DNA of 64,000 nucleotides from Yuukianura sp. NJ FZ-2021 (GCA_046563655.1 CM102283.1:3162001-3226000); one strand, 5' to 3'. Positions 5,134-51,024 are shown, numbered from the stretch's first letter. The notes: generated by a model not told the origin, from the letters alone. Program-made: numbers and translations.

Positions 5134-6164
5134 CTACAGAGAACTGCTGACTTCCATCGTTCGTGGAACGACGGGCAGAGGTGGATCGTCGACCAGAAAT
5201 TTGGCGCCAATTTTTGAATGGTCCACCAAGCGATTTGCTGGACTGACAAGAAGTGACCTCACTCTGTTTTGTGCAGGAGTCAATGAGAGAAGTGGACCAC
5301 CTCCATTGTATTCCAATGACTCTTCACTTCTGCTCTCCTCTCTCACACAAGTTTCATCAAAAGTACATGTTACTATGAACAGGTCAAAGGTCAGTGTCAT
5401 CAACAAAAATTCAAAATTTTGAAATCAGAAATTTCGAAATTCTTGATTACCTGAACTGCAGCAAACCTTGTGTGCAGCACATTGGCCATTGATTGACACT
5501 CCAGAATTCCCACTGCATGATTTTCCTGGATTTTGACACATCGAAGTGTAACGAGCTTCCAGAACACAAGAGACTGTTTCAAAATATGTTATTATAATAA
5601 AATATTTTATTATACTAAAATATGTTATTGTAATAAAATATTTTGTTATACTAAAATATATATGTTATTGTAATAAAATATGATATAATATATTATAATT
5701 TGGGTAGAACTTAACCTGTTTCTGGTCCTCCTATTAAACAGCCAAATTCATTTGAACAACAAATGTTTGGGCCGTAGCAGCTAATTACAACAGTAATAAT
5801 TTTTAATTAATTTCATAACTTAATTAACTAAGTAAAAGGATTTTAAAAGCCTACGAAACGTACCGTCCAGCTCTATTTGTGCCACACGACTCGCATTCCT
5901 GTAAATAGGAGTTTAGTAAACAAAAAATTATAAATTAACAATTCAAACTTCATGAATTTTTTTTTGAAAAAACCCTTTGAAAAAAGTTTTCAAAATTTTG
6001 AAGTTTACCCTTGTAATAAGTGGAGGTGAAACAGCACGTTTTCCGCCTGGTGGACAATTCGTGATGAAGCATCCAGTAGCAGAAGCCACTGAAATCAGAA
6101 GAACCAAGCAACCAGTACTTTTGCCAAGTACGAGCATCATGCTTGCCCAGTACTCTTGTACCAT
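5134..6164 (-). CDS. Oxytocin/vasopressin-like (inotocin-type) neuropeptide-neurophysin precursor
   Basis: Signal peptide, CFITNCPPG-GKR, then Cys-rich neurophysin over small exons (CESCG..CYGPNICC..GC..C..C..C..C..CC..C..C) and a C-terminal extension. Confidence 0.95.
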
Positions 6165-6859: not shown

Positions 6860-7115
6860 CAAGGTTCCTTGACAACCGAAAATAAACTTCCTTTACCAGG
6901 TTGAGTACTACCTCGCTCGTTCACAAAACGAAAAAACAACTAAAATTGATACGAATCCAAAAAACTGGTACCAATTCGCATGCAAAATTTAAAAAATTCG
7001 GCTGTATTTATGACTACGATACCATGAAATGAAAGACACTCTTTTTTTTTAGAAAATCAAAAAGACAAGAGGGATTACTCAACCTGTTAAAGAAAATCAA
7101 AGTCAAACAACCTTG
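6860..7115. mobile_element. CAAGGTTG-family MITE, degenerate copy just past the stop of the CAMSAP-CH gene
   Basis: Ends caaggttcc...caaccttg; internal inverted repeat caggttgagta/tactcaacctg; similar to the 17229 copy. TSD not clear. Confidence 0.6.
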
Positions 7116-7118
7116 ACC

Positions 7119-10100
7119 TCAAAACCTGCGTGATGCTGACAAATTCCCTTGGGTCAATCGGTTGACCCGTATGATTGGATTGACCTCTAGATGTGTGAAG
7201 AGGTCAATGAGGAAAGCCAAGATGTTTTGCTTCATGTAGCCATGGACGTACAGAAAGTCGGTCACTTTCAAATGGTAAATTTTTTGCGGGAAAAAGTCGT
7301 TGCATAATTTTTGAATCAGAGTGTGGTTGAGTGTCATGTGATACAGGTTGAGCACTTCGCCGGGTTCCGGAACTGCGATGTCTTCCAGCCTCACGTCAGA
7401 GGCAAAGTACAAAGCAAAGAGCGCAGAAATTCCAACGCCGTCACAGAGGTCACGGATTTCCGTCACGAGAGCCACGTTGAGCCACCGGAGAATGTGGGGC
7501 GTTGGTGGGGCATAAGGAGCCACAGGATCATAGCAGGATCCACGATTCTGTAATTCAAAGAAAAAAGTCAAAGGAATAGAGGGATCGAATTTCGAAAAAA
7601 AAAAGTCTTGTTTTTGCAACACGCCACTTTTTTCAAATTGGCGCCCTTTATTCTCGCACGTGAATAAAAACAGATTTTGAAATCCAACTCATTGTATTTC
7701 TTTCGAAATTTTATTTTATTTTCCTTGGAAGGCAGATCATCTTACGTTATTAAATTGGAAAAAAAAACTGTCGTTCAAAGAAGTAAAATTTTGAAAACGA
7801 AAGAATCGAAAAAAATGTGTTTTATAAAACTTTTTTCAAAGTGAGAAAAACGTTTCGCACCTGAGTAGCATGGATTTGAGAAGAAGCAAGAATGCAGGCT
7901 TTGAGCGTCGTCACTGCCGAATTAATCCAACTGATGATCAATTCTTCAGGAGTTTTGGCATCTTTAGAACAAATTACATAACATTACATAATTTTTACAT
8001 AACAGTACATAAATAACATAACATGATACATAACAGTACATAAATAATATAACATGATACATAATTCACATAATTTTAGGAATTTACCATTTTTGAGGGA
8101 GTGTCCGAAACTGTTGAGGATTAGTCGCACCCTGTCCTGCCTCACGAGTTCCGTAGCGTAGAGGCTCATCAGTGACTCAATCAAGGCCATATGAGCTGCC
8201 TATTTCAAAAATTTTTGAAATTTTGAAAAAAATTGGTTTTTGAAAAAGTATTTTGAATTTTTTTATGTACGATTCTCAATGGTCTTCTTTCACGTAGAGC
8301 TCCTTCAGTAAGTTTCATGTCTGACGGTTGAGCGTCATAGACTCCTTTTCGACTTAAAACCTTAATGATTTCCCAGAGAGACAGTTTTTGTGTGACCTTG
8401 ACCTGCGCAGAACTTTCTGATTGCAACTGCGCAACTCCGATTCCATCTGAAACAAGGTTGCTTTATCACCCATTTATACAACTGTTCTAACAGGTTACGT
8501 CATAACTCTCAGTTTTTTTTTTCAAAAAAATACGAAAAAGAAACAACAAATTTTGTACGAATCACATTGGCTTTACAAGGTGTGACGTCAACTTTGCAGG
8601 CAAATGCAAAAATCAAAACAAACATTTTTTAAAACAGGAGTTATGGCATAACCTGTTAAGACAAAGCAAACAAAATATTGAGTTAAACAACCTTGGTCTG
8701 AAACTGCTCCTGATTGGTTCCCGTACAAATTGACTAGCACAAGAGTATATAACTTCCCGTTGGTCAGATCACGAATCACTTCGTCCTTGAGTCTTAGCTG
8801 TTGTTTGTCCTAAGCGGAAAAATTTGAATTTTGAATTTCAAGCATTAGAATTTTCAAAAATTTTGAAATTTTTTAAATTTTGAATTACATACTTTTTTGG
8901 ACTCCTTGTAAGGACACAGTTGAGTAGAATTTGGGGGGAGATTTTCAAAAGCTTTGGCGAGTAGCCACGTGATTGAGGCTTCCTTTTTGGACTAAAAATT
9001 TGTATTGAAATACCTCAAAATGTTTCAAAATTTAAAATTTTGCATTTTTTTTCAAAATTTTGAAACTTACTTCCCACCAAGGAGCTGAAAATTCTTTAGG
9101 CCTTTTGTGTAACCAAATAAACATGCGTTTTGTTCTCTCAATCGTAGTGTTCGAAGTTGGTCCAAAATTTCGGTTTTTGGCTTCCGACATTTCCCGCCAG
9201 CATCGCCAGCATTCTCCTTCAATTTCCAGGGGAGTTGTGCTTTTGAAATTGGCGGAATACAGTGACTCTAAATCACTCCATCCCATGCATGGATCAGGAG
9301 CCAACCAGCACTTGGGATGCGCATGACTCTGATTTTGAGTCTGCGCATGTGCAGTTTGTCCTGTTCTGAAATTAACACCGTCTTGTTGTGGTAGAGCTGC
9401 GCACAACTCGTCTTCTTCGTCTATCGTACACAGTGGAACAGTCGGTTTTTGCTGAGCTTGAGGTTCGGGAAGTGTCGGATCAATCCGGAAATTTTCCGAG
9501 TTGTGCACCGTATTTGTTGATTCCGAGTTGACATTGTTTGAATTCTGCCGTTCTGCACATGTGCAATGACAATCACAGGTTTTATTTGGTGGCGAAATTT
9601 CGGAAACGCCGGAACGAAACGAACGGTACGAATTTCCGGTTTTTGTTTTCGATTTTGAGTGTTTCACGAACTTTGGTTTTCGCCGAACCATTTTGGATTT
9701 TTTGGGAACCGACGAGGCACAGGGAGCTTGAAAAGCTAGTCGTGGAGAACTACCTACGCAGTAAGGTTTATTTTGAGTTGTTTCTGCGCAGACACCTTCA
9801 GTTTGTTCATAAGGATTCCGATAGAGACCGCCACTTATGCATTCCTGGCATCCCGGACGAAACATGCAACCATGCTGGTCTTCATCTACCGTCGGAGATC
9901 CTGATTGTCTTCCTTGCGTCTGCGCAGATCCCGAACCTTTTCCGGAATCAGCCGAAGTTGCCGTAGTTGTAGAAGTTTTTCGCAGTTTCGATTCACTTTC
10001 AGTTGGAGACGAAGAATTTGAATGATAGTTTTGAATTCCGCGGCAATTTTTATTCGAATTTGAATTTCCCACTGGACTGTGGAAACTCCCGCCAATCAGA

Positions 10101-11590
10101 ATCGAGAGATCGCGGAGTTGTTGGAGTGCTGAAGTTGAAGCGTCTGTGCTTCTACAGTTTCCAGCAATAGAATCAACTGAGGAAAGTGTAGAGTAAGTGT
10201 CATGTGGTTTGGCATGGCCGCAAGGTAGAATCGCTGCAGCGACGTACGTTTCGTATCCGGTACATTTACAAAACGATTCGTTTCGTTTCGGTTGAGCATG
10301 AGCAGATTTCGTTTCTTCAAACTCCGGATTTTCTGAAAAACGCAGCGTCTTTTTGGCTTCTGCACATGTGCGAACTGTGGTTGGAGTTGGACGAATACCG
10401 GACTTGAAAATGAAACAGTCAGTGTTGTTATTGGGAGAAGACGTGGAACCGACTCCGGAAGACGATTCGGGCGAACTCGGAGACCGGTTTGAAGTCGTCT
10501 TGGGATGAGGTTTGAACAAAACCGAATCGAAACTTTCAAGTAAACTGTCACCGTCGGGGTCTTTGACCTCTTGAAGGTCAGAGGTCACGTGAGACTGTGA
10601 GGCTTCTCTGATTGGCTCTTCCGAAACGGTACGAATGTTTCCGGTTCCGGCCGAATCTCTTCGGGAAAAGCAAGTACCGACCGACTTCGGTTCTGCACAT
10701 GCGTTTCTTTCTGGACTACTGCGTTCCATCGGAACATAAACCATTCCAAAACTTGGTAGATAACCTTGACCTGCACCGTGACTTTGACCAGTACCGTGAC
10801 CTGCACCGTGACCTTGACCTGCACCGTGACCTTGACCTGCACCTTGACTTTGACTTTGGCCAGATCGACACGAATAAGAACTGACGGAACTCTCAGAATC
10901 CAAATCCAAACGATACTCTTCATACGACACTCCATTAGTTTCCGGAAAGTGCCGAACTCTGCGATTCGGAACAAGAACTTTAATTGTTTCGGATTCTTTC
11001 GGTAAACTTCTCATTTGTGTCAGTTGATGCCGGGAAGACTGTGCGTTTTCATCATTTGAATTTTTTGAATTCAAATTTTTCCCGCCACAATTTGAAATTG
11101 GCGGTTCGTCCGGTTCAGAATCGGAGCTTCTCCAGGTTTCAGTGCTCGGCAAAGAGTCGTAACTATGGTGACCAAGTTTGTGCCGTCTTCGGGTACCGTC
11201 AGAGCAGTTCGATTTTTTGTGATTGTTGTAAGGGTAGTCATACCCCCGATTACTCTGATTGTTCGGTATGATTACAGTCAACGGTTGTTTTAAAACTGAC
11301 GATACTTCTGTACCGTCGATTGACTTTCCTGTGTTTTGATTGGTCGATTTTCCATACTTTGATCCATAAGTCACTTGATTGTTGTTGTTCTGAGCATGCG
11401 CAATAGGATTTTTGAACGTTGGAGCAGAAGATGCTGATCCAGCATCGTCACCGCCGCGGCGTCCATAAATTCTTGCTTGCAGCTCCGCCTTCGCTTCCAA
11501 AGCAATTCGCGGTCCCCATTTGGAACTTGCCGATCCGCCAGCACTGCTCGGTCCACGGCTCAACTTTTTCTTCAGTTTTCGTCCGTACAT
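7119..11590 (-). CDS. Protein with a long low-complexity N-terminus and a C-terminal CAMSAP/Patronin-type N-terminal/CH region
   Basis: Large exon 11590-9071 splices in phase 0 to SKKEASITWLLAKAF. Later exons give LSLWEIIKVLSRKG, PLRIAAHMALIESLMSLYA and DLCDGVGISALFALY...FLYVHGYMKQNILAFLIDLFTHLEVNP, resembling Patronin N-terminal and CH motifs. Start codon uncertain. Confidence 0.75.
8453..8695. mobile_element. CAAGGTTG-family MITE forming a coding-region intron (8447-8691, minus strand)
   Basis: Perfect 8-bp TIR CAAGGTTG/CAACCTTG; TSD atctgaaa/gtctgaaa; internal inverted repeat aacaggttacgtcataactc/gagttatggcataacctgtt. Confidence 0.85.
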
Positions 11591-14500
11591 TTGAAAAATT
11601 TGAAGAAAACTTTTGAAAAACTTTTTTTCGAAACTGTTTTTTTCTGAAAAACTGGCACTTTTTTGTTTCTTGTGGCCTTGCTTGGTGGTTCTTCGAATTG
11701 AATCTAGTTGCAACGGTCTAGTTCCTTATTGGTTGTCATTCGACAGCGGCGCGGTCACCACCGTGGCAACTCCACCGTGGCAACTGCACCCACCACCCAA
11801 GAAAATTTTGAAGTTGGTGCAACTTCAAAATTTTGCACCTTAAAAAACTTTTTTTTCGAAATGAAAACTCAAAAACCGTTAGCGTTGCTAACGCTGAGTC
11901 GAGGTGAGAAAAGTCAATGAAGCGGGAACTTTTAAATCAAGCAAAACTGAATTTCAATGAAAAAAAAACTGTGTTTTTTGCAATGTTTTTGCTCAACTGT
12001 GTTTTTTAAGTGTTTTTCTTCAAACGGAAGCACTGGAGTGTAAAAATGTTCAATTAACTAACCGTTAGATAAGGCTACACTCGTCAGTCACACTTTTCCT
12101 TGAAAATTCAATTTTAAAAAGTTGTAAAATTTAAAACGGGTTTCTTCAAAAAAGTTAATGCAATTTCTAAAGTGTAATTGTGTAAAATTTTTAAAGTTTT
12201 AGGAGGAGATGGTGCCTGAAGAAACAATTGGAGACGACTGACTCTGGTCTTTTCATTTCAACAATGAAAACTTCCTCTTTTTTCCACGATTTTGACGCCA
12301 AGAATGGCAAAAGTTTTTCCTCCACGGTTACTTTACTATTGTTAACTTTTGAAAAGTAACCGCAAACTTTCAAGAAAAAGTGACAAAGAACTTATAACTT
12401 TTCAAAAAATAAGCAGATTTACGGTAAAATAAAAAAAGAAGAAAAAATCTATGAAAAGATAATGAAATGCAGAACTTTTTTTTGTCGAAGAGTCTAAGCG
12501 TTTTTAAAAATGATTTTCGTATTTTGCGGTTTTACCGGATGAAATTAGTAAAGCTTTCAAATTTCCAAATTTGCAAATTTTGTGCAAAATATCTTTGCAC
12601 AGAGTCTGTCATTCTTCTATTGTTAAAAACTTTCGTTATTGTTCCTTTTATAAACTATTTAAAACGCAAATTGCTTTTTAAAAACACAAATTTCTTGGTT
12701 CTATCAAATCATCTTGCCAAAATTTTGTGCGCATCCTCCTCAAAAATTTGCACAATGAAAACAAAAGGCAATTTTTTTTGCACAAAGCAAAATTTTTACA
12801 CAGAAAAAAAAAGGAATCCGCCACCTAATTAACTGCAGTTTCCTTTTTCCTCATTTCAAAAAAGTTAATTACTGACAGACATTTTATGTTTCTTTCTCGG
12901 CCGTGTGAGTTTACCTAAAACTTTCTGTTTCAGATTTTTCAAAATTTTCAAAAAAAAAATGCTTTTTTATCTCTTTGAAAGGAATTCGCAAATTACAAAG
13001 TCCGTTAACAGAGAAAGTAAAGTAGGTGAAATATGGAGGAATGCAGACAGATTTAAATCAAGCAAAAAAAATTTTTTTTTACCACAAAAATGACAAAGAG
13101 GGAAAAACTTTTTCTTTCTTTTCAGTTTTGTGTCACTCATAAATTCCCACCTACATAAAATTTTGTCTTTTTCTTGTCATTCTGCGGTCACTGACCTCGT
13201 GACCTACAAAACTGTCAAAACTCACAATTATAAAAACCATACATAGTTTTTCATTTCTGTTAAAAAGTACAACAAAATGGTCAGTTGACATGTGCGTAGT
13301 GATGACCTAAATTTGAAATGCAAAATTTTGACAAAAAAGATGAAAAGAAAAGACAAACTTTTTTTTTTTGTAATTCCCTATTTACCTACTCGCTCATCAT
13401 CAAGCATGTCGTTAGCCTACATAAAGACATTGAAAATAAATTCCAAATTTCCTTTTTTTCAAAAAATCAAAATTCATGTTTTTCCAAAGTGTCAATTTTT
13501 TCGAAATCGCGTTTTAAAAACTTTGCCAAAGAATTCCTTGCTAATGATCATGAACTTGATATAGTTGGTTACAAAATACGTCCACCTTGCCCAATTTTGC
13601 AAATTTGTCATTCATTGTGTTCCAAATTTGAAATTTGTCCCGTTTTAGACACTTTTGACTAATTTTTGACAATGAGAGGAATTAAACAAAGAAAAAGTAA
13701 ACAAGTGGAACTGAGAAGGGACAGTTTTTTTCCAAAACGCTGATTTTTTGAGCAGTGGTTGCTGACGTGTGGTAAAATTTTGAAATTGTCAAATCAGTTT
13801 TAAAAACCGTTACAACTGTGATTGGCAGCAGCTGATTTTTAAAGTAAGTTTAACGTGGAGACGCCTTTTAAGACTTCAGATGCTCAGACACCGTGAAAAA
13901 GGAAATGCTCCGTGGGTGACGCCGTCGTAAAACGTCACGGTGGAGCTGATGCACCGCGGTGGGCTGTTTTCAGAGGTTGCTTCAATCATGTCACTCCAAG
14001 TTGTCACTTCTTACTACCGGTCAGTTATTTCAAAATGTGTCAAAATTTCAAAAAAAAAAGTTTTGAATTTGTTTAAATTGAGTTTTTAGAACTGTGATTT
14101 TGTTGGTTGAAAAATTTAGTAGAAAAGTATGATGTTCGAAATGAAAGGAAGTGAAGGGAAGTGTACATGTAGTATAATGATTTCAGGCGAATGTGTGTTA
14201 AATTTTGTATAAATTGTGTCAATTTTTTTTTGAAAATTTGGTTTTTTTGAAAAGTAATTTTAACTCCAATGAAACCGAGACTTTTACCACACATGAGAAT
14301 CCGGTCACTGTTTTAAGACATTGTGTGGTGAAAAATGGGTTTTTTAGGAAAGAAAAACTTGAACAAAAAAAAAGTCAAGAAAACTTCTGTTTCTTTCCAA
14401 TTATTTAAAAAAACACTAATTTTTTTTCTTCTTTTTTTTTTGTTTATACCGAAGCTAAAATTTTTTTTTGCAATTTGGTATCAATTTCAAGCCACCATCA

Positions 14501-16458: not shown

Positions 16459-18450
16459 TTAATCTAAGCGCAGAATTTTTCTGAACGCTTTTTGATATTC
16501 CTGATTGGACACTCCGTAGATGATTGGATTGAGGGCAGAGTTGACATATCCAAGCCACGTAAAGACATGAAACCAAATGACATTCGGTTTCATTCCATCC
16601 GGACACAAGGAACCAATCACATTCAAGAATCCAAGCGGCAACCAACAAATCACAAAAGCCGCCATGATTATCCCGAGCGTCTTGGCAGCTTTTCTCTCCT
16701 TGGACAAACTAAATTTCTGCTTGTTGACCAAAAAAGTGCTAATTTGGGCCGACACTTTTCGTCTCCCTTGACTCTTCGTAGACTTGCCAATGCAACTGAC
16801 AGTCCCATTGCTTTCTTCTTCCGAGACGGTTGACTTTGGATCCAGTTTGTCTGTCGTGTCAGCGTCACTTGTCAACTCCATGCAGTTGACACGGGCTCTC
16901 TCACGCAGTCGCTCTTGAATGGCATAGTAAATCTTAGAGTAGATGACTGACATGATGATGAGGGGGAAGAACAGTCCACCAATGGCCAAGTGGAAGTTGA
17001 ATCCCGGGGAACTCGGCATCTCACAGGAGACGCCGTCGTATCGAATGGCCCAATCTTCTACAGCCAGGAGCGTGGGAGAGCCAATCCACAGTGCAATTAT
17101 CCACAGGAAGAAGATGTTGACGAGGACGTTCCTCAGGTTACGCTTCTGGACGTAATGGATACCGTCAGTAATGGCCCGGTACCGCTAAAAATAAAATCAC
17201 AATTTTGAAGGTGACAAAAAACTGAAAACAAGGTTCCTTGACAAAAATTTAGTATTCTTCAAAAGGTTACGTAATACCTGAGTTGTTTACAAGAAAAAAA
17301 AGAATACCAAAAGTATCAATTCCACAAAAGAGTTTCTGGTACTCTTTAGTATGTAAAATTTTTTTAAATTCGTTTATAATATCATGATTACGTTGACCTT
17401 AAATAGAAATTATTATTATTGTTATTTTTTTTTTGTAAAATCTAAGAAAAGCACGAGTTATTATGCAACCTGTTAAAGAAAAATGGCAACAAACCTTGAC
17501 CATAAAAGTTTGAATTTTTTGTCGGGAGTGCTTACGTCAATTCCGATGGCGCAGAGATGAAAAATGGAGACGCAGCATAGTGAGACGTCCATGACCAAGT
17601 AGACTTTACACATTGCGTCTCCGAAGATCCATTTCTGGAGGATGAGTGTGGTCATGTTGTAGGGCAGGACGAGCAGCGCCACGCCCATGTCAGTCATAGC
17701 GAGTGACACAATGTAGATGTTTTGTGGAGTGCGGAGTGACCTCTTGGTGAAAACTGCTATGACAACCAACAGATTTCCGAGGATGATGGACAAGGTTATG
17801 ATAACGAGGGGGACCAAAGTCAGGACCGCTGCTGTGGTGGACATCATTTCGGGCATTCCGGATCCGGAAGTATTCGATGTGCTCCATGGTGGCACAAGAC
17901 CTGTGGAGGTACCAGAGGTACCCAGTTGGGTAGTACAGTTGACGTATACTGTATTGATGATTGTAGAACTACTGGAAGTTTCGGTACCGTTGAGCCAGGG
18001 TGAAGCGGTTGGTAGGAAGTCTGAGGTACCGGTACTGTTTTTCCAAAATGACGGCAGAAATCCGATGGTACCGTTTTTCCACGGCGGAAGGAATTCCGCG
18101 GTACCGTTTTGCCAGGATGAGGGAACGATCAATTCAGCGGTACCGTTTTGCAATGACGGGAATACCGAAGAATCTGTGGTACCGTGGGGCAAAAGCGTAC
18201 TTGAAAAAATGGTGGGAAGCTCAGACGTTGACATCGTGTCGGTATGGTATTCTGTTGAGGTCACTGGCAGTATTTCACTTTTGTCCCACTTCCAAGGTGG
18301 ATACTTCTCAGCAGTATTTGCAGTAGTATTGGCAGCAGTATTGTCAGCCATACTTGCACTAATGTTGTTTTGACTGTGGTTGGGTGAAGTTATTCCGAAC
18401 TTTCCATTGCCCAGTACGTTCGCTAGTGTCCAAATCGCAGACGGATCCAT
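16459..18450 (-). CDS. Aminergic rhodopsin-family GPCR, tyramine-receptor-1-like, 2 coding exons (18450-17536, 17184-16459)
   Basis: GNLLV, LAMTD, TM3 Asp (LVMDV), D|RY across the intron, SLSKERKAAKTLGIIM, CWLP and WLGYVNSALNPIIY. Confidence 0.9.
17229..17498. mobile_element. CAAGGTTG-family MITE, older copy inside the GPCR intron
   Basis: Ends caaggttcc...aaaccttg; internal aggttacgtaatacct/gagttattatgcaacctgtt; degenerate TSD. Confidence 0.6.
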
Positions 18451-18824: not shown

Positions 18825-20555
18825 TTAATTACAAAGTGGAATACAGAATACGCTCTGCTTGAATGGTAGGCAAATACATTTTTTTCTTAACAAATCTAGC
18901 TTGTAAGACATAACCGTTCGCTTTAAGGTTTTACAAAAGAAGATTCCAAGTAGTTTCGATTCACAAGGATAATGTTTAGCATTTTCGAGTACTCTGTAAC
19001 GCTTAACCAAAACAGTGCCTTTTGTAGTGTCAATGCTTTGTACAACACAAATATCGGTTTCATTTACAATGTAACAACATCCCACACCTACACTACTACA
19101 TTGAACATCAGATTTAGTGCCTCCTAAATCGAAACTGTTGCCTCTTTCTGTAATTCTATTAACAGTTTGCATTAAATGGTTGCTAGTACCATGAACTAAT
19201 TTTTTTAGTCTAGACATAAAACTCTCAAACTCGAAAGCACTAAAAGAGTCCAAGCTGCCATATTTCTTAACATCTTGTACCAAATGTAAAAGTGAGTGCA
19301 TATTATAAGTAATTAATTCACAGCCATATAACTCAGGAATCTGTTCAACAAATTTGCAAATTAATTGTGAGGCATATTTAAGCCAACTGGAATTCTTAGC
19401 TTGAGGAGATACTAAAATATACATAGCAGTATGAAATATCAGAAAATGTGAATACTTTTCTAGTGTCAAAATTCCTTTCAGTACTACCGGTCCTAAATAC
19501 AGCATAAACATTCTATACTCCACGGCTTTAAAATAAGCCAGGTAAGTAAGTGGACGAGGCTTCCTTACAAATTCCTTAGGAATAAATTTGCGGAGTCGCA
19601 CCATTCGACTGGAAATGCGTTCCAAGTCACCACTTGACAACTTGTAAGGACCCTTGCTCCAAACGATAAGCATTCTTTTCATAATACCTAAACAACATAG
19701 ATGCATATACTCCAGTGGTATCTCTGTAATTAGTCCTATGTTTAACTCAACAAGAGGCGAAAACCCAGTGTGGTGCTTCTTATAAATTTGATTTTTAAAT
19801 GAATTATTAGAATAAAGTGAAGTCACTTTAGCTGGGAAGCATACCCTATTGTTTTTCCAAGTGCCTCGGGCGTAACAACGTTCACAACTATAATAACCAG
19901 TATGCGGCTTTACACATTTTAAGAAAGACCGGGCGGGGGCATCGGCTATTATTGCCCTGAGAGTTATTGGATAAATCGAATTTTTGAATAGGATACCGTT
20001 TTGCTCTAAGTGTTTCATCTCCTCTACAAAATCTGCTAAAAACTCGTCAACATTTGTTGGCTTGTTATACGCGCTAAATAGTGAAATTACAAAAATTGGG
20101 TTTTTTCTAAATTCGGAAATTTTGCCTAATATTGGCCAAAATTGCAATTTGGAGCTTTTAGAAATGGGAAGTCCATCAATGTTCACAGTTAGTGTTAAGT
20201 TAGAAGACTTGGAAGGGACTTCACTTTCTAATATGCGCGTAATATTTTTTTCAATACCAAAATAAAACATTTCACCACCACTGGATTTTTTGGCGAGAAC
20301 TTTTCTAGGAGTCCTTAAAAAAGATCTGGAATCGCTAGGGAAGTTCTCATTTGGAAACCACGATGCTACTAGTTTTAGTAAATCACTAGTAGCAGCACCG
20401 GTTAAGTTATGTTTAAATACAAAATCTCGTAACTCACATTTTCTAGAAATAGTATTATTTACACTAATATTGGCATACTGTGGTGTAGTCGAATGATGAA
20501 TAGTGTCGTCAGCCAAAATCAGATTGTCTTCTCGAGGCGAAATCGCAGTATCCAT
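18825..20555 (-). CDS. CMC/EnSpm-type transposase (uninterrupted ORF; alternative upstream ATG at 20672)
   Basis: NIDGLPISKSS..FWPILG, ADAPAR..C...H.GYYSCERC, PLEYMHLCCLG, YNMHSLLHL and GSLDSFSAFEFES are motifs of animal EnSpm-like transposases. Confidence 0.88.
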   Translation of the reverse strand: MDTAISPREDNLILADDTIHHSTTPQYANISVNNTISRKCELRDFVFKHNLTGAATSDLLKLVASWFPNENFPSDSRSFLRTPRKVLAKKSSGGEMFYFGIEKNITRILESEVPSKSSNLTLTVNIDGLPISKSSKLQFWPILGKISEFRKNPIFVISLFSAYNKPTNVDEFLADFVEEMKHLEQNGILFKNSIYPITLRAIIADAPARSFLKCVKPHTGYYSCERCYARGTWKNNRVCFPAKVTSLYSNNSFKNQIYKKHHTGFSPLVELNIGLITEIPLEYMHLCCLGIMKRMLIVWSKGPYKLSSGDLERISSRMVRLRKFIPKEFVRKPRPLTYLAYFKAVEYRMFMLYLGPVVLKGILTLEKYSHFLIFHTAMYILVSPQAKNSSWLKYASQLICKFVEQIPELYGCELITYNMHSLLHLVQDVKKYGSLDSFSAFEFESFMSRLKKLVHGTSNHLMQTVNRITERGNSFDLGGTKSDVQCSSVGVGCCYIVNETDICVVQSIDTTKGTVLVKRYRVLENAKHYPCESKLLGIFFCKTLKRTVMSYKLDLLRKKCICLPFKQSVFCIPLCN

Positions 20556-20556
20556 G

Positions 20557-22049
20557 TTAAGCTGAATTTTCGGAAGAGGAAGACTTCTCTCTGGCCTCCT
20601 TTGAATTCTTTGCAGGTTTTGAACAACCTGCTGTTGAATTCGTCTTACTCGGCTTCGCCTCGGTGTCTCCATTGTCGTCTTTCTTAGAGTTTCGGAAATG
20701 ACGTCCAATAAATAAATTGAGTTTTGCGTCTGATGCGTCTTCGCCTTTGTATGTTTGCTGAACCGCAGCTGGAAATTTAAGATAAAAGTGTTAATTGAAC
20801 AATTTGTAGTAAAGAATCACAAAAAATGGAAATCGTTATACACAAAGTTAAGTTACCTCTCACAGCCAAAGCCAGAGTCAATCCACCGAAAGGAACTTTG
20901 CCAGAGTTATCCGTAATTCTCAGCTGTTTTCTTACATCCTCTGAGATTAGCAGACGTAGGGTGTTATATACCGCTTTCGACACTGGATATCCGCCGGCTT
21001 TGGACAACTCAGTGACCTTAGTATATTAACAAACACTTGGTAGAGAGTTGATTCTAGTTAAGTAATTAAAATAGTGTGATGTTGAGAATGCACTTACAAG
21101 GAACTGATATTGAGTTTGATTTTGAACTATTTGTTCTGCGATGTTCAACTCATCAATTGTTTTCAATGGCAAGGGAGGATACTCGTGACGTTGGGTGGTG
21201 ACAGTGTTTGATTGTGCAAGTGACAGACGAACAAATTTAGTCAAATCCACCATCTGTTGGTTTAAGCGCTCAAGACTCTCCAGCACTATCTGTTGGAACT
21301 CTGGAAAAAAGGAGTAAATCATTAGTTATAATAATAGATATAATTTCGTACATTAAATTGAAGAACGTCATTACCACGATGCTCATTTTGCATTTGCTCG
21401 AGGGAAACTGTCGACAGGACTGCGAATTCTCCAACGTTCTGTGTGACGCCAACTCCTGAAACACACATAGTCTCCAATAACTCAAATTGAATGAATGTAA
21501 TTAATGTTTGGGTTTGATCACCTGTATCTTGCACGGTTTGTTCCGAATCTGGATTGATTCCCAACACAAATTCCTCATGTAAGTAGGTAGTCGGTGGCGG
21601 AGGCAACGATTGGGATGCTGAAGACTGATTTTCACTCTCGCTTGTGTCCGCTAGATCTAACCTCCTGGATTTTCGTAAAATATTGGATTTCTTCACAGCC
21701 TTTTCGTGGGAATCTAAAAAAGAATACATAAATTTGGTTATGTGGAGGCACAATTGATTCAACTTTGATTATCTAACACATGCATCTTAAACCCTATACG
21801 CAATGAGCATTATCGAGTTATCCACTCACCAAATCCTTTTACGTATTCTATCTCATACTTGTCCCAGTTCTCGTCCGGTACAGATTCCGCGGATTTAGAG
21901 AGTAGTCCCACATTTTTTGTTTTTTTTGGTGGCCAGTGACACTTTAGGTTTCCTTCTTCTGGCGATATCCACTTCGACGGCACAACGGAGTATCGGTTTT
22001 CGTGTGGAAAGAATACTACTGAAAAGTTTTTGAATTGAACAGAAGTCAT
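20557..22049 (-). CDS. Transposon accessory protein (spliced; DUF4806-like C-terminus)
   Basis: FSVVFF..E..YSVVPSKWI..CHWPP N-terminus; PLPLKTIDEL, GGYPVSKAVYNTLRLLIS, and last exon ...LFIGRHFRNSKKD...ENSA*. Canonical GT-AG introns. Confidence 0.7.
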
Positions 22050-25843: not shown

Positions 25844-33999
<8,156 letters not shown>

Positions 34000-39289: not shown

Positions 39290-39362
39290 CAAGGTGGGTA
39301 AACAAACAAAAGCTACAGATACTTACTTGTAGCAAATACAATCGGTTGCTATAGCAACCTTG
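39290..39362. mobile_element. Short (73 bp) CAAGG-family MITE
   Basis: Ends caaggtgg...tagcaaccttg; perfect 8-bp TSD aacgggtt; an empty-site-like duplicate lies at about 39730-39795. Confidence 0.8.
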
Positions 39363-40357: not shown

Positions 40358-41565
40358 ATGTTTGGGAGGCTGAGTGTGGCGGTTTTACTAGTCTGGGGAG
40401 TGGCGTTGTCGAAAAGAGTGCCAGTACAGTTTCCATTTGCTAGTACCAAGGTGAGTTTACTCTCATTCTAGAGACTCTCTGCAACCGTCGATTTGTATTA
40501 ACATTTGATGAGTTTCTACTTTCTAGGAAAAACCTGATGAAGGGCTCTACTACTTTCCTATACCAGACACTTGCCCAGGTCACTTAACAAAACAAAACCA
40601 TCCACCTTCTCGAATATGTAGATGCAAGATTACTATAGCAACCATTTGTACAAATGGCTTAAGAGGTTATGTCATAATTCCGATTTTCAAAAAAAAACAA
40701 GAAAAAACAACTTTGGTACGAATTTCATACGAATTTTGTTTTCTTACCAAAAATGTTGGTTTTTTTCTTACGCTTTGCTATAGGAATCTTTAGTTTTGAT
40801 TTCGAATTGCTAACGCAACGGAAGCGTGTAAGGGTAGCGCAAGACGTGTGATTCAAAAAATTTAAAATCAAGAAAACAGGAGTTTTGACATAACCTTATA
40901 AGAAGAAATAAACAAAATTTCGAGTTAAACAAGCTTGATGTAGATGGCTGTATACTATACTGTAAATATACTACAGTACTACTATATACTATAGTATATT
41001 TACAATTTAGTATACAGCCATCTCTAGTATATATATAGTAAATATACTATATATATACATAGTACATATACAATATATATCATTGTACTATATGGTGGTT
41101 ATATATATAGCATTATAGTATATTGTACATATACTATGTATATGTAGTAAAAGGTATATGTGTACAGACGAATGTGTCTACATTCCGGAGTGTGGCCCAG
41201 GCAGATTTCTGCCCACAATGGAGGAAATGGACAAAATCGAAAAAACGAGGGGGTATGGGAATTCTAGTCGACGGTTTATCGCCACTGGGGGAGGTGACTG
41301 TGAAGGACTCTACGACCTTGACCCCGTCATTTGTCCAATTACGTCCGTTGGGGAGTGTTACATCAAGTGCGGTGGATTACGCTGTGCTACCCCAGAACAC
41401 AATGGATTCACCACCCGCAACCCTCTCCACCCTGTCGTATTTGAAGAAATGGTCCAACTCCACCGCAAGGAAAACAATCCTACGTTGAACATGTTCAGAT
41501 TCCGCGATATTGCGCAAGCCAAATACCCACAGTATAAACCTCCTCAGCCTTACTACAAATCATAA
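40358..41565 (+). CDS. Hypothetical secreted Cys-containing protein (3 exons)
   Basis: Signal-like MFGRLSVAVLLVWGVALS; donor at 40451; exon starting at 40527; last exon ECVYIPECGPG...C..C..C..C..C...YYKS*. Confidence 0.55.
40625..40937. mobile_element. CAAGGTTG-family MITE
   Basis: Ends caagatta...caagcttg; direct repeat atgtagatg on both sides; body closely similar to the 44429 copy. Confidence 0.85.
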
Positions 41566-43926: not shown

Positions 43927-44150
43927 CAAAGTTGTTTAAATCCAAATTTTGTTTTATTTTTTTAACAGGTTATGCCATGACTCCTGTTTTTAGAAAATTG
44001 TTTGTAATTTCTTATGCGATTTGTTGGCCTCGCGCCATGCAAAATAAAAAAGGATTGGTCCAAAAGTTTTTTTTTAAGTTTGTTTTTTAAATCCGAGTTA
44101 TGGCATAACCTGTTACGGAATTTGTGCAAACCGCCACTATAGCAACCTTG
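43927..44150. mobile_element. CAAGGTTG-family MITE (reverse orientation) just past the stop of fusion gene A
   Basis: Ends caaagttg...caaccttg; TSD gttttacc/gttttaag; internal aacaggttatgccat/atggcataacctgtt. Confidence 0.8.
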
Positions 44151-44161
44151 GTTTTAAGCGG

Positions 44162-47100
44162 CTAACTTGGTGTTTTGGGGAAAACATTTTCATGAAAATG
44201 CTTTCCGTTTTCTCCAAGGATGTTTCCTGGTGGAAAGTAAGCGACTACCACAATCGTGCGACGTCCATTGCTGGCCACTCCTGTGCCCATATCTGTTGTG
44301 TCTTTCCAAACAACTTGTGAAAAGGTAGAGTAGTACGGATTGTCCCAGTTGTAGGAAGAAATGTCATCGTACCAAGCATTCACTGCTGCAACTACTGAAG
44401 TCTCGGCAGTAGAGCGATTCCCTGTAACCAAGATTCCTATAGCGACCATTTATACAAATGCCGTAAGAGGTTATGTCATAACTCCCATTTTTCAAAAAAA
44501 AAATTACAATAATCTCTCGAATTTTTTTAATTTCCCGCTTTGATTAATTGTTTTAATTTCGAATTGCTAACGCAACGGAACATCGTCGTAAGATGTGCGT
44601 TTCAAAAAATTTGAAATAAGAAAAAAAGGAGTTATGGTATAACCTTTTAAGAAAAATTGAACAAAATTTTGAGTTAAACTTGCCTGTAACGTAGTACACG
44701 TTTTTGTTTATCCCCTCTTCATGCTCATTTTCAAAAGTTCCCTCTCGAATCAACTTGTTAGCATACGCTTGAGCTCTTTGTTTCATCTAAAAAAAGTTTT
44801 TGGTTTTCAGAAAAAATGATAAAAATTTGAAGTTGAAAAACAAAGTTTTATGAATTTACACGAGCACTGAGCCGGAGCGGTGGAGAATCATGCATGGAGC
44901 GGTAGAAGTTGTGTCTTTCAAGTGACTTCAACTCATATTCTAAAAATAATGTTGAAATGAAATTTCAAAAATCAAAAAAGTAAAAATTTTTAAAAAATTT
45001 TGAAAAATTTTGGATTTCATGTTTTTTAAATTTACGTTGAGTGTGAGCTCGATTTGAAAGTGGAAGTGAAGTTGTGGCTGCCTTGGCTGGAACTGTTTGT
45101 CGACGTCGATGTTGACTAGTTTTTACAACTGTAACTTCAACGGTAGTCGAGGGGTCAATGACCTCTGGGGGCGATTTTGTTGTTGAAGATGTTGCTGTTG
45201 ATGTTATTGATGTTGATGAATTTGTTGTTGACCTTATTGTTGTTTCTGAATTTGCTATTAATGTAGTTGCTGTTGTTGTTGACTTGGTTGGCGTACTCAT
45301 TGTGACCTCCGTTGTACCTTCAATGCTTTCAGGCGAAACGTCCGTCACGGCAGTCGTTTCTTCAAACGTGGCAGGAGTTGAATTTTTCAAAATTTCGAAA
45401 ATCGTTGTTATTTCTGGAGCTGCTGGAGTTGTTGACAGAGTTTTTTCAAAATTTGAAACCAAAATTGATTTGGAATTTTTTGGCGTTTCGATAGTAGGAA
45501 TAGGAGTTACTTCAATTTTTTCTGCTGTATGTATTGGAGTCGTAGATGTGTGGGTAGGAAGTGGCTGAAAACGTAAAATTTGAACTTTTTCAACAATGAA
45601 AAATGAAGGAATGAATTTTTTTTTTTAATTTTCACAAAATTTTGGTTTTACTGAATCTTGTTCATCGCCTTCTGGAAACAACTCTTCTGCTGTATCTCGG
45701 ATCCACTTGGCATAGGAGTTGACTTTAGTAAAGACGCTGTAGTTGTCACAAGATTCAAATCCTCCGCTCAAGTCTTTCTTACCGTGACTAACTATACCCT
45801 AGTGTTCAAAATTTGAAATTTTTGAAATTTTGAAATTTTGAACAAAATGGATTTGGAAAAATTCATGTGGTTTGCTACCTGAATGTAGTACCGACTGACG
45901 CCATTTGTATTTGATTTGAACATGAAACCTCCGCCGTTGTCACCATTACACGCGCCTTGAACTGAACAAGAAATTTCAAAATTTCAAAAAAAAAAAAATG
46001 TTTCGTTAAGATTATAAAATTTTGAATTACAGTTTTCAGTGCCGGCACAAAATTCGTACGGAGTGAGTTGGCGTTGGCGCCATTCAAAACACAAATTTGA
46101 ATTTACCACCGGCAGAGTCACGTTCCTCAACGTGAACGAAACGGCGTGTGGATCACCTTCACTAAACTGTCCAAAACCTACCACCTTCGAAATTTTGAAA
46201 ACTTAAAAAAATGCTTTTCAAAAAAGTTAAAAATTTTTAATTTTGGCGCTCAATTTACCTCTCCTTGTCCCATTTCCTCTGTAATGTCAACGCTTCTACT
46301 GAAACAAGCTGGAATTACGTTAGGGTTTAGCTCAACCGTTTTGATAAGCGAAATAAGTGCGATATCTGCCTGAAAATCTCCTGGAATTCCTTCAAACGAT
46401 TTGTGCAAAACGATTTTCCTAACCTACATACATAAAATTTCAATTTTGGAAATGCTAAAAATTTTAAAATTTTGAAAAAATTTTAACCTCATGGATTTGG
46501 ACATCTTGAAGACCTAAGTTTTCCTCCAGAGAACTAAATTCCCCGCCAAGAACGATTCGAATGTTTTCAAAATCTTCGCGCCCTTGGTGCACTTCATTTG
46601 CCAAGCAGTGTGCAGCTATAAATCCATTTTTAAAAACTTTCAAGTTTCCAAGAAACTTTGAATTTTTGAGGAATTTTACCTGTGAGGATCAGAAATCCTT
46701 TGTTGAAGGGCTTAATCAAGGTCCCACCACAAATATATTTGAAATCCGCAGTTAAATTTTCGCGGGAAAAAATCGATGCGTGCCAAGGCCAGAGTTCTCT
46801 CCGCGTTTCAGTTCCGCCAACGACAAATCCAACTGCATTGGCTAATTGTGGTAAACCGCAGTTTATGGCACAGGAAAACGCCAGGAACTCGGCTCGACCA
46901 ATCCACTGACTCCGCGGACTACAAATCAGCTGACCATCTTCAACGTCGTCGTTGAGTGCGACGTAGTAGTTGTTAACGCAGTTGTACGTTGCGATCGTTC
47001 CCGTCGGGAGTTTTGCACCACCGTGACAGTCAATGACTTCACCAGTGTTGGAGTTCTTGCAACGCACTCTCACGCCCTGCGCAGAATTCAAAATTTAAAC

Positions 47101-48282: not shown

Positions 48283-51024
48283 TCACGCCTCATGTGCATT
48301 TCCTCCAGTAATCGGTGGGAAAACGTTTTCAGCAAAAGATTTTTGTCGTTCAGAGGAATTAACTGGAGGTCTATCGTACTTGACCACCGCAAGTTGTTTT
48401 TTCCCACGCTGAGCCACGCCCACTCCAATCGCTGTTGTGCGTTGCCATACAATTTGTGTAAAGGGATTTGCTCGTGGTGATGCAAAATTGTAGTTTCCGG
48501 CAGTTTTGTACCAATCGCGAACGGCGTCTTGAATGAGACGTGTGGCTGGTACAACGTTACCAGACAAGCCGTACCAGTTCGTAAATCCAGAAAATTTAAA
48601 ACGGTTCGTAGCCAACGCTTGTTCAGCTTCGGCTTGAGCGAGTTGGCTCAACTAAAAACAAATAAACACAAAATGTTCAACATTTTTTCTTCAAAGGAAC
48701 CAAAATTTGAGACCTTTTTTTCGGTAATACTGGTTTACCTGATGAGAAATTTTGACTGGCGGAGCTCCGTGGCGCCGACGGAATAAATTGTGTTGCAGAA
48801 CAGCTGTGATTTCGTAATCTGAAAGAGTTGTATGGTTAACTTTTGTTGACAAAATTACAAGTTGACAAAATTGCATGTTGATCAAATTGCAAGATGATGA
48901 AGACTACCTTTCATAGAGTTGTCAAGGGCGGAATTGACGTCAGGTTGGTCTGGCTCTACGAGAGCAATGACGTCAGGATCCTGCGTTCGAATTAAACTGT
49001 GAATTATGTCTTGAATTGCAATTGGCAATGACGCAAAGTCGTCTGGGTTCAATTCGTGGTCAGCTGATACCGTTTCTGGCACGGAAGTTTGCAATCTCTG
49101 CGAAGATTGCGGTAAAGTTGGGCGCGGAGTTTGAATCTTGGAAATGGCGGGAATCCGAACTTGAATTTGTTCAACTGGCGCCTGAGGGGTCAAAGGTCGT
49201 TCCGCCCGAGGAGTTTCTTGAAATGAATTCGGGTTTGGCTAAAAACAGATCAAACCGGTTTTGAACTTATTCTTAAACAAATTGGCAAATTAATGCACAC
49301 TTTTTAAGTTTACCGCGAAAAAAATTCGTAGGAAAAATTTTCGCCAGCAAAACTTTCGCGAAAGTCAACTTTTTTTTTCCTCACCTGAACTGACTGTTGA
49401 TGTCGCTGTCTCTCTTCATGCAGTTCCAGGGCAGTTTGTTTGATCCAATCTGCATAGTCACTCACGCCAATAAACCAACTGTGCTTTCTACATGTACGAA
49501 GTCCCTCTCCCAAAACGCCCTAAAATTTTCAAAATTTTAAGATTTTTTGAAATTTTGAATTTCCAGTTTCTAGAAAGTTTTAGTATACCAGAATGAAATG
49601 GCGCTCAGAGTTGGCTGAAAAGCGTGGAAACAAAAGTCCGCTACCAAAGTCTCCGTCGCAAATATTTTTTCCTACATGACAAAAAAAAAGTATGCTTTCA
49701 AAATGTGTTTCTTTCCAAGTTTTTCAAAATACATGTGATTTCAAAAAATTGTGTCTTTCGAAATTTTGAAAACTTACCTTCGCTACTTCCAGCACAGAAG
49801 GAATGTTTAGAAATTATTCGCGCCCTTTTGTCAATGCAGTTTCCAAGCGTGACTACTCCTGCGCTGATATTTCGCAGGGCGTCGTTTGTACTTTTTTGAC
49901 CAAACCCAACTAACTATTTCAAAATTCAAAATTTTTGCATTTAAAGTTTCAAAATTTTGAAAAATGTAAAATTTGGGAACTTACTTGACCAAATGTGGAT
50001 TCTTGGAGTTGGTGTTTGGCAAAATCGACGCTCAGACTGAGACATGCTGGTAAAACCATTTTGCTTAAAACTGTTTCACGGGAAAGCTGAATCAGCGCCA
50101 GCAGACCATCATCTTCCGTTACAATTCTTCTGACCTAAAAATATTTCAAATTTTTCAAAAATTTGAGTTTTAGATTTTCGAAAAATGATAATTTTGTTTG
50201 ATTACTGGAGAAGTTTGTCCATTGCTTTTGTGTCTGGAGTTTTTCTCGTGTGAAAAAAGTCCGAGACGAATTTCGATGTCTTCCGGATTTCTGTTTCGGA
50301 CGCATTCGGCTCCCGTGAGAACCAAAAGTTCGTCGGCGTTAAAGGGATTGATCAAAGTCCCGCCACAAGCAAATTTGAAATTTTCTGGGGCAGAGTGAGA
50401 CTCCCGGGCAAAAATTCCTACATGCCAAGGCCAAAATGTATGGGCAGAATCCGGGTAAGATTTACCACAATCTGTGTCAAAAGTTCAAAATTTTGAAAGG
50501 TCTGCAGAAGAGATAAATTTCTGAAATTTTGAATTTTCAGAATGTGGTTTCTCACCCATGTGACACGAAAAAGAGCGAAATCTCAAATCCGGCGTCCATT
50601 TTCCATTTTTTGAACAAACCATTTGCCCTCCAGTGTCTCCGTCATTTGTGACACTTTTGGAACAAAAAAAAAAACATTTTTTTTTCAAAATACTTCTTTT
50701 TTGAATTTTTTTTTGAAACGTACAAGAAGTCTTCGCATTTGTATTTCGCAATTGTTCCTGGCGGCATTCGCATTTTTTGACAATCCAAGGACTCTTTTGT
50801 ACTTGGATGTTGACACTCAATGTCAACTCCCTAAAATTCAAAATTTCAAACAAAAATCATACTAAAAATCTCTTTTTTTTAAAGTTTTCAAAATTTTTCA
50901 AAAAGTTTTAGGTTCTTACTGTTCTGAAAGACAGTGACTCACAACTCTGTCCTTGTGCAGACACTTTTCCTAAACCCATCGCAGCAACAAATTGCACAAA
51001 AACTAAAACTTTAACTTTTTCCAT
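48283..51024 (-). CDS. Fusion gene B: signal peptide - Sushi/CCP-like - non-catalytic serine protease homolog - Pro/Gln linker - CAP domain
   Basis: FWPWHVGIF..FACGGTLI..LTGAEC (His lost)..ICDGDFGSG (Ser lost). In-phase splices lead to HNLFRRRHGAPPV..AVRDWY..FTQIVWQ..ENVFPP. Shares intron positions with gene A. Confidence 0.82.

Follow-up and report, generated by a model that had tools for sequence, protein, structure and literature searches.

The origin of new spliceosomal introns is an old question, and the one mechanism able to account for bursts of intron gain is that of transposon-derived introns. Huff, Zilberman and Roy are said to have described, in 2016, introners that arose from terminal-inverted-repeat DNA transposons. 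A 2009 study reportedly found new introns with short flanking direct repeats in a crustacean-like arthropod and attributed them to double-strand-break repair, with no repeated element family involved. The survey by Gozashti et al. (2022; PMC9860276) illustrates introner families that carry their own 5' splice site and recruit a 3' site from the target-site duplication (legend to its Fig. 2C), and gives Aureococcus introners as adding 12 bp, of which the element provides 4 and the duplication 8 (legend to its Fig. 2F). Its account of animals places introners in only two groups, copepods included. Gozashti et al. (2025; PMC12130899) add a sea urchin, and most of the families classified there are terminal-inverted-repeat DNA elements. 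A nematode survey, in its passages on the subject, treats introners solely as background (PMC9169325). Here, we analyze a candidate of this kind in Yuukianura sp. NJ FZ-2021. The whole stretch of DNA that was analyzed, hereafter the window, comprises 64,000 nucleotides (GCA_046563655.1 CM102283.1:3162001-3226000), and all positions are counted from its first letter. It contains, on the minus strand, a miniature inverted-repeat transposable element (MITE), which we call copy A, lying between two coding halves of a gene of the CAMSAP/Patronin type. We propose, with a probability of roughly two in three, that this hAT-like MITE inserted in a coding exon and is now removed as a 245-nt phase-1 intron, at predicted splice sites (Table 1).

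On the minus strand, the first eight letters of copy A are CAAGGTTG (8695-8688) and its last eight are CAACCTTG (8460-8453). The 3' copy of its target-site duplication follows (8452-8445), and then GGAATC... of the next exon part. Only short read-through open reading frames (ORFs) occur in the copy A region. In a repeat search, TCTGAAAC came out as a direct repeat of 8 nt without mismatch (8446-8453 and 8697-8704, with a spacing of 251 nt), which is the target-site duplication of copy A read one base aside. With the boundaries set by the family alignment, the duplication is a 7/8 match, and its sole mismatch, GAC versus GAT, is synonymous in both positions. A blastn search of the copy A region against the window recovered three further copies. 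The four copies, A to D, span 224-313 nt and align from CAAG to CTTG, and an nhmmer profile finds each of them end to end (E 5e-60 to 1e-54). The subterminal arm motif occurs eight times in the window, corresponding to two arms in each of four copies, against a mean of 0.03 in shuffled sequences. The flanking duplications match at 7/8 (A), 9/9 (B), 6/8 (C) and 8/8 (D) positions, and their sequence differs at each site. Short non-coding elements, terminal inverted repeats, site-specific duplications and multiple dispersed copies, the features by which such a family is recognized, are thus all found in the window. Judging from its ends, its duplication and the relatives described below, copy A is a true MITE insertion into a formerly single continuous coding exon.

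The inserted DNA amounts to 251 nt, that is, 243 nt of element and 8 nt of duplication. The predicted intron would take up 239 nt of the element, 6 nt of the duplication and nothing more, leaving 6 nt behind. Its predicted donor GT lies at 8691-8690 in the terminal repeat and its predicted acceptor AG at 8448-8447 in the duplication. Excision of 8691-8447 keeps the frame between ...GAVSDQ and DGIGVAQ..., and the in silico removal of the element with one duplication restores an open frame. Two in-frame canonical solutions exist within 12 nt of the ends of copy A, the one with the +6 nt scar being the smaller. In a by-eye reading of six neighboring introns, to which our comparison of splice sites is confined, the predicted acceptor TTGTTTCAG|A is similar to all six acceptors. 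The ORF-joining GT...AG pairs of the window, taken as a training set for a splice matrix, fell into 305 clusters, most of them spurious, from which no consensus of use could be drawn. Read-through into copy A meets a stop after 34 codons, and the four downstream exons are open and have homologue matches, so that splicing would be required to make the full protein. The intron RNA is predicted to fold as one long hairpin that joins both intron ends (-58.4 kcal/mol, z -3.5; 1 of 200 shuffles folds equally well). From the sequence properties of this insertion, we infer that splicing occurs and that these exact sites are used.

The identity of the host gene is given by Pfam matches. Both exon halves around copy A match PF25532 (CAMSAP2-like N-terminal CH domain), and a downstream exon matches PF11971 (CAMSAP_CH, E 5.5e-10). 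Distant CAMSAP proteins align to five exon blocks, from 9021 to 7134, and four neighboring introns of the gene measure 83, 71, 126 and 313 nt in a by-eye reading. An exhaustive HMMER search with the CH exon returned 92 proteins, including one 130-aa fragment at 74% identity; the others are distant (at most 39% identity) and uninformative on the junction, and a separate homologue search with this exon among longer proteins gave no match. A protein search with the downstream stop-to-stop ORF retrieved two relatives, P0095 (100 aa, 72% identity) and P0096 (111 aa, 53% identity), each of which is one unbroken ORF spanning both exon halves. Both continue past the conserved ...PLRI into V and unrelated residues, at the point where the CAMSAP-like exon meets its GT donor, which indicates that both are genomic ORFs still unspliced, as opposed to models of a spliced gene. 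Since these unspliced ORFs are continuous across the junction, the intron at copy A is, on the evidence of both relatives, not ancestral: it is absent from them at the same position. Intron gain by insertion is the only economical reading.

A preliminary description of this DNA had placed the donor of a minus-strand intron inside the terminal repeat and the acceptor inside the duplication, and the positions proved exact to the base. It had also described a 245-nt in-frame candidate intron that leaves 6 of the 251 inserted nucleotides, with which both the arithmetic and the frame agree. Its assignment of copy A to a MITE family is borne out by the end-to-end alignment and nhmmer profile of the four copies, and that of the host gene to the CAMSAP type by the two Pfam domains. 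As a check on a pre-existing intron it had proposed an alignment with orthologs; the alignment with the relatives P0095 and P0096 came out in favor of an intron that is not ancestral.

Table 1. Positions of copy A and its parts, the predicted intron, the two halves of the split exon and the other family members in the window.
Feature	Position	Strand	Description and evidence
MITE copy A	8453..8695	-	243 nt, non-coding, termini CAAGG...CCTTG; family alignment; nhmmer model positions 1-238, E 4.9e-60
Target-site duplication (8 bp), 5' copy	8696..8703	-	TTTCAGAC; coding, closes the upstream exon
Target-site duplication, 3' copy	8445..8452	-	TTTCAGAT; carries the predicted acceptor TTTCAG|AT
5' terminal inverted repeat	8685..8695	-	Contains AAG|GT; 11 nt arms, 91% complementary
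3' terminal inverted repeat	8453..8463	-	11 nt arms, 91% complementary
Subterminal inverted arm 1	8638..8663	-	Contains the family motif AGGTTATGNCATAACTC; 26 nt arms, 85% complementary
Subterminal inverted arm 2	8483..8508	-	26 nt arms, 85% complementary
Predicted new intron	8447..8691	-	245 nt, phase 1; frame kept, no stop; splice sites predicted
Upstream half of former single exon	8692..8809	-	...LVNLYGNQSGAVSDQ; ORF; PF25532; 70% identity to P0095 residues 1-27 (E 2e-14)
Downstream half of former single exon	8271..8446	-	DGIGVAQ...PLRI; ORF; PF25532; 69% identity to P0095 residues 32-86 (E 5e-26)
MITE copy B	40625..40937	-	313 nt; 9/9 flanking direct repeat; family alignment, nhmmer
MITE copy C	43927..44150	+	224 nt; 6/8 duplication; located just past the CAP-domain exon's stop codon, on the 3' side
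MITE copy D	44429..44682	-	254 nt; splits the CAP-domain exon; exact 8-bp duplications 44421-44428 and 44683-44690
Degenerate copy E	6860..7115	-	nhmmer E 0.013, model positions 1-237
Degenerate copy F	17229..17498	-	Within the older GPCR-gene intron 17185-17535; partial nhmmer matches
Family fragment	26436-26535
Family terminus	39337-39362

These elements suggest the following course of events. A hAT-like MITE of an abundant family (243 nt, 8-bp duplication, CAAGG...CCTTG) inserted into a coding exon of the CAMSAP/Patronin-like gene. The consensus terminus, CAAG|GTTG, provides AAG|GT in both orientations and could thereby supply the donor whichever way the element lands. By chance the duplicated target reads TTTCAG, a good acceptor. 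Of the 251 inserted bases, the spliceosome would then excise 245 as an intron in phase 1. What stays behind, 6 bases of which the element contributes 4 and the duplication 2, would lengthen a loop in the N-terminal CH-like domain by two residues.

A sister event may have taken place elsewhere in the window. Copy D sits between two ORFs of a CAP-domain gene (PF00188), and P0097 (118 aa, 72% identity), a relative retrieved with the downstream ORF, is continuous across the junction. Residues 1-35 of P0097 match the upstream part at 89% identity and residues 40-117 the downstream part at 74%, while residues 36-39 stand opposite four residues of the window, giving equal lengths. Because P0097 is of equal length across the junction, the mature message must lose exactly copy D and one duplication. 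A script allowing splice sites up to 12 nt from the ends of copy D found one canonical solution, a GC-AG intron at 44422-44683, whose 262 nt equal 254 plus 8. The predicted donor, CAG|GCAAGT, straddles the joint, combining the duplication's final base with the beginning of the element, and the acceptor, GTTACAG|G, lies in the second duplication. The four bases to which the other copies owe their GT at that end are missing from copy D, so it cannot use the donor proposed for copy A. By the alignment with P0097, the candidate intron of copy D is absent from this relative at the same position.

The reading of copy A as a spliced intron has several points against it. The exon side of its donor, AAG|GTTGTT, is good; the intron side has T, G and T at +3 to +5, and each of the six neighboring donors (GTAAGT, GTATGT, GTACAT, GTAAAT, GTGCGA and GTAAGC) carries a purine at +3. 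The predicted fold puts the first 7 bases of the intron into base pairs of the terminal stem. A second in-frame donor, GTTTAA, lies 3 nt deeper and would leave a +9 nt scar, and additional phase-1 GTs occur deeper inside copy A. With the proposed splice, the loop from LVNL[YF] to KLSLWEII counts 30 residues, compared with 22 for P0095 and 21 for P0096. It is thus 8 residues longer than in the former and 9 longer than in the latter, and because its length varies among relatives, the two-residue scar cannot be read from the alignment. Finally, neither a CKK domain nor any other C-terminal CAMSAP part was found within the 64-kb window.

How often would a random exonic insertion be spliceable? Taking ten long ORFs of the window, we placed copy A or copy D, along with an 8-bp duplication, in silico at each position in turn and in both orientations, yielding 18072 site-orientations per element. 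A solution consisted of a donor (GT or GCAAGT) and an acceptor (YAG, with 3 or more pyrimidines among the 6 upstream bases), both within 12 nt of the ends, leaving 0-12 extra bases, in frame and free of stop codons. Solutions of any kind were found at 732/18072 sites (4.1%) for A and 1097/18072 (6.1%) for D, those with a scar of at most 6 nt at 420 (2.3%) and 381 (2.1%), and exact excisions at 80 (0.4%) and 94 (0.5%), respectively; these figures are indicative only, because the criteria were set after both cases had been seen and were relaxed once the acceptor of D failed a stricter pyrimidine rule, which must be added to the reservations listed above. Solutions exist for the window's two exonic copies alike, with +6 nt for A and exact for D. 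Within the limits of this model, that both are spliceable suggests selection for splicing: if only spliceable exonic insertions persist, those that we see should be spliced.

The simulation bears directly on a competing explanation, according to which the insertion was never rescued. Copy A would then mark a disruptive allele or a young pseudogene, giving either a truncated protein that ends in the element or no product. We regard this as rather unlikely, since both exonic copies have an in-frame canonical solution of a sort expected in only some 4-6% of random insertions each, the sole difference in the duplication is synonymous, and the other exons are open and conserved. The family also looks old, with a mean column identity of 64% in its alignment and arms 85% complementary; if so, a dead gene should show damage. 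Such an allele is favored by the weak donor, paired in a stem, and by the failure to find the C-terminal CAMSAP parts within the window. A broken copy of the gene could also persist, since nematodes that lose the orthologue are viable.

Alternatively, the element could be spliced out at other sites, either from the GTTTAA donor (+9 nt) or from a phase-1 CAG|GTTATG in the subterminal arm, which would lengthen the loop. The +9 solution does appear in the output of the simulation script, the 34 open codons of read-through leave room for deeper phase-1 donors, and the loop is tolerant of changes in length. We nevertheless find these sites improbable, because the exon side of the proposed donor (AAG|) is the best and its use alters the protein least, and because the alternative donors have a T at +3 as well. 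An ancestral intron that was later colonized by the MITE and independently lost in the relatives is very improbable: although the comparison rests on two relatives, no intron sequence lies outside the element and its duplication, unlike at copy F (see below), an open frame is restored on removing the element with one duplication, and both relatives are intron-free yet keep the flanking exon ends.

We may now return to the preferred reading, a MITE that became an intron, and ask how general the process is within this family. The preliminary description had spoken of two exonic insertions within 64 kb rescued by splicing, the other of which we take to be copy D, and had noted that both have the same orientation relative to their genes. 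The family alignment agrees on orientation: the two copies (n = 2) align end to end and run the same way with respect to their genes. The insertions themselves also stand, as A and D each split an exon that is continuous in relatives, while the rescue of both by splicing is a prediction. Its further claim of a systematic intron-generating family fares less well. In its favor, two exonic copies have splicing solutions. Against it, only 2 of the 8 copies or fragments in the window (4 clear copies and up to 4 degenerate copies or fragments) are exonic, and A and D differ in their predicted donors, a GT in the terminal repeat in one case and a GC at the joint between duplication and terminus in the other. 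The non-exonic copies lie within an intron, beside an exon end or, as for copy B, in sequence without assigned coding. The pattern looks more like opportunistic rescue combined with a survivorship filter than like a dedicated intron-making design, even though the consensus terminus has AAG|GT whichever way it lies.

To which superfamily does this family belong? Among the hallmarks of hAT elements given in PMC3014272 are an 8-bp target-site duplication and termini of the YARNG type. The consensus terminus CAAGG and the 8-bp duplications fit this description, and the short, non-coding copies with subterminal inverted repeats resemble MITEs of the hAT superfamily. Unlike such MITEs, copy B has a 9-bp (9/9) repeat and several copy ends depart from YARNG at position 5. 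Neither a hAT transposase nor an autonomous partner was found within the 64-kb window, and because of this missing transposase we label the family, on its sequence features, hAT-like only and leave the superfamily unassigned. The one transposase-like ORF nearby (18825-20816, minus strand, 663 aa) has no Pfam match. Its look-alikes in a language-model search are mostly Arthropoda clusters named transposase, part of them with Transposase_21, DUF1258 or Plavaka. The ORF may encode a CACTA/KDZ-like transposase; it looks like the Transposase_21/Plavaka kind rather than hAT and is not flanked by MITE termini. Searches of other data for the family were negative. A scan of metagenome contigs for the arm motif gave 119 stretches, with a single arm match in each of the 80 listed, and blastn of the four copies against all 119 found nothing beyond 31-nt low-complexity extensions. 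A similar scan of viral contigs gave 6 loci with one arm match each, which we take as chance.

The degenerate copies E and F have no recognizable target-site duplication at their ends. Copy E starts 13 nt past a possible CAG|GTTTTG donor that closes the CAMSAP_CH exon, with an in-frame TGA in between. The stretch could be an intron or a 3' untranslated region, and the next exon was not found. Copy F takes up most of an intron that interrupts a G-protein-coupled receptor (GPCR) gene of the aminergic type at its D|RY motif. We considered it as a third intron-creating event and rejected it, as the host intron has its own splice sites, a GTAAGC donor and a TTTTTAG acceptor, with 37 and 44 nt of flanking intron sequence. 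Without copy F this intron would measure about 81 nt, a usual size for the window. A palindromic AT-rich motif like TTCAAAATTTTTGAA occurs 38 times in the window (at most 2 mismatches), against 4.2 expected, e.g., at 8204-8219, 8853-8867, 9050-9065 and 49925-49962. The first three of these sites fall within short introns of the CAMSAP-like gene, and the motif is also present in copies B and D.

Other features of the surroundings deserve mention. An 897-aa serine-rich ORF without Pfam match (9032-11725, minus strand) closes with a GTAAGT donor a short way upstream of the first CAMSAP-like exon; it could form a long N-terminal exon of this gene or belong to a different one. The ORF 5943-6164 (minus strand), immediately downstream of the CAMSAP-like gene, encodes a signal peptide followed by CFITNCPPG and GKR, and resembles a precursor of vasopressin/oxytocin-type neuropeptides. 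The peptide CFITNCPPG is among those tabulated for the crabs Cancer borealis and Portunus pelagicus in PMC7181382. Together with the mostly arthropod look-alikes of the 663-aa ORF, it marks the host as arthropod-like, and a nematode origin was rejected on these two grounds. Farther away, exons that bear P-type (Na/K-like) ATPase motifs have directly upstream of them a tandem repeat (30546-30650, plus strand) translating as AHKLRT units.

The locus has much in common with published introners: a non-autonomous transposon in an exon with predicted removal by the spliceosome, a predicted splice site inside the element paired with another taken from the target-site duplication, and a small in-frame scar. 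It departs from them in having only two candidate intron-forming copies, seen in a single 64-kb window, in the different predicted donors of A and D (GT in the terminus, GC at the joint), and in its arthropod-like host. The short direct repeats at its flanks are like those of the arthropod introns of the 2009 study, whereas the candidate intron described here belongs to a multi-copy family with inverted repeats. The mechanism matches that of published introners, and the novelty is the animal host and two rescue modes side by side. A broader proposal, possible and still doubtful, is that an abundant hAT-like MITE family of an arthropod acts as a working introner, whose exonic copies survive when the duplication supplies a YAG in register.

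These results may have implications for intron gain in animals, where transposon-derived introns have been reported in very few groups. Within 64 kb, there are two candidate rescue modes, one with a GT donor in the terminus and a +6 nt scar, the other with a GC donor at the joint and scar-free excision. If this is true, and if the density of about one copy per 8-16 kb holds genome-wide, there would be many lineage-specific introns in an animal. The locus displays the full anatomy of the birth of an intron, with the intact duplication, a predicted donor in the terminal repeat, a predicted acceptor in the duplicated target and the unsplit exon of the relatives. If the junctions are confirmed, it would provide an animal system in which to learn which insertions are rescuable and how weak splice signals borne by transposons work.

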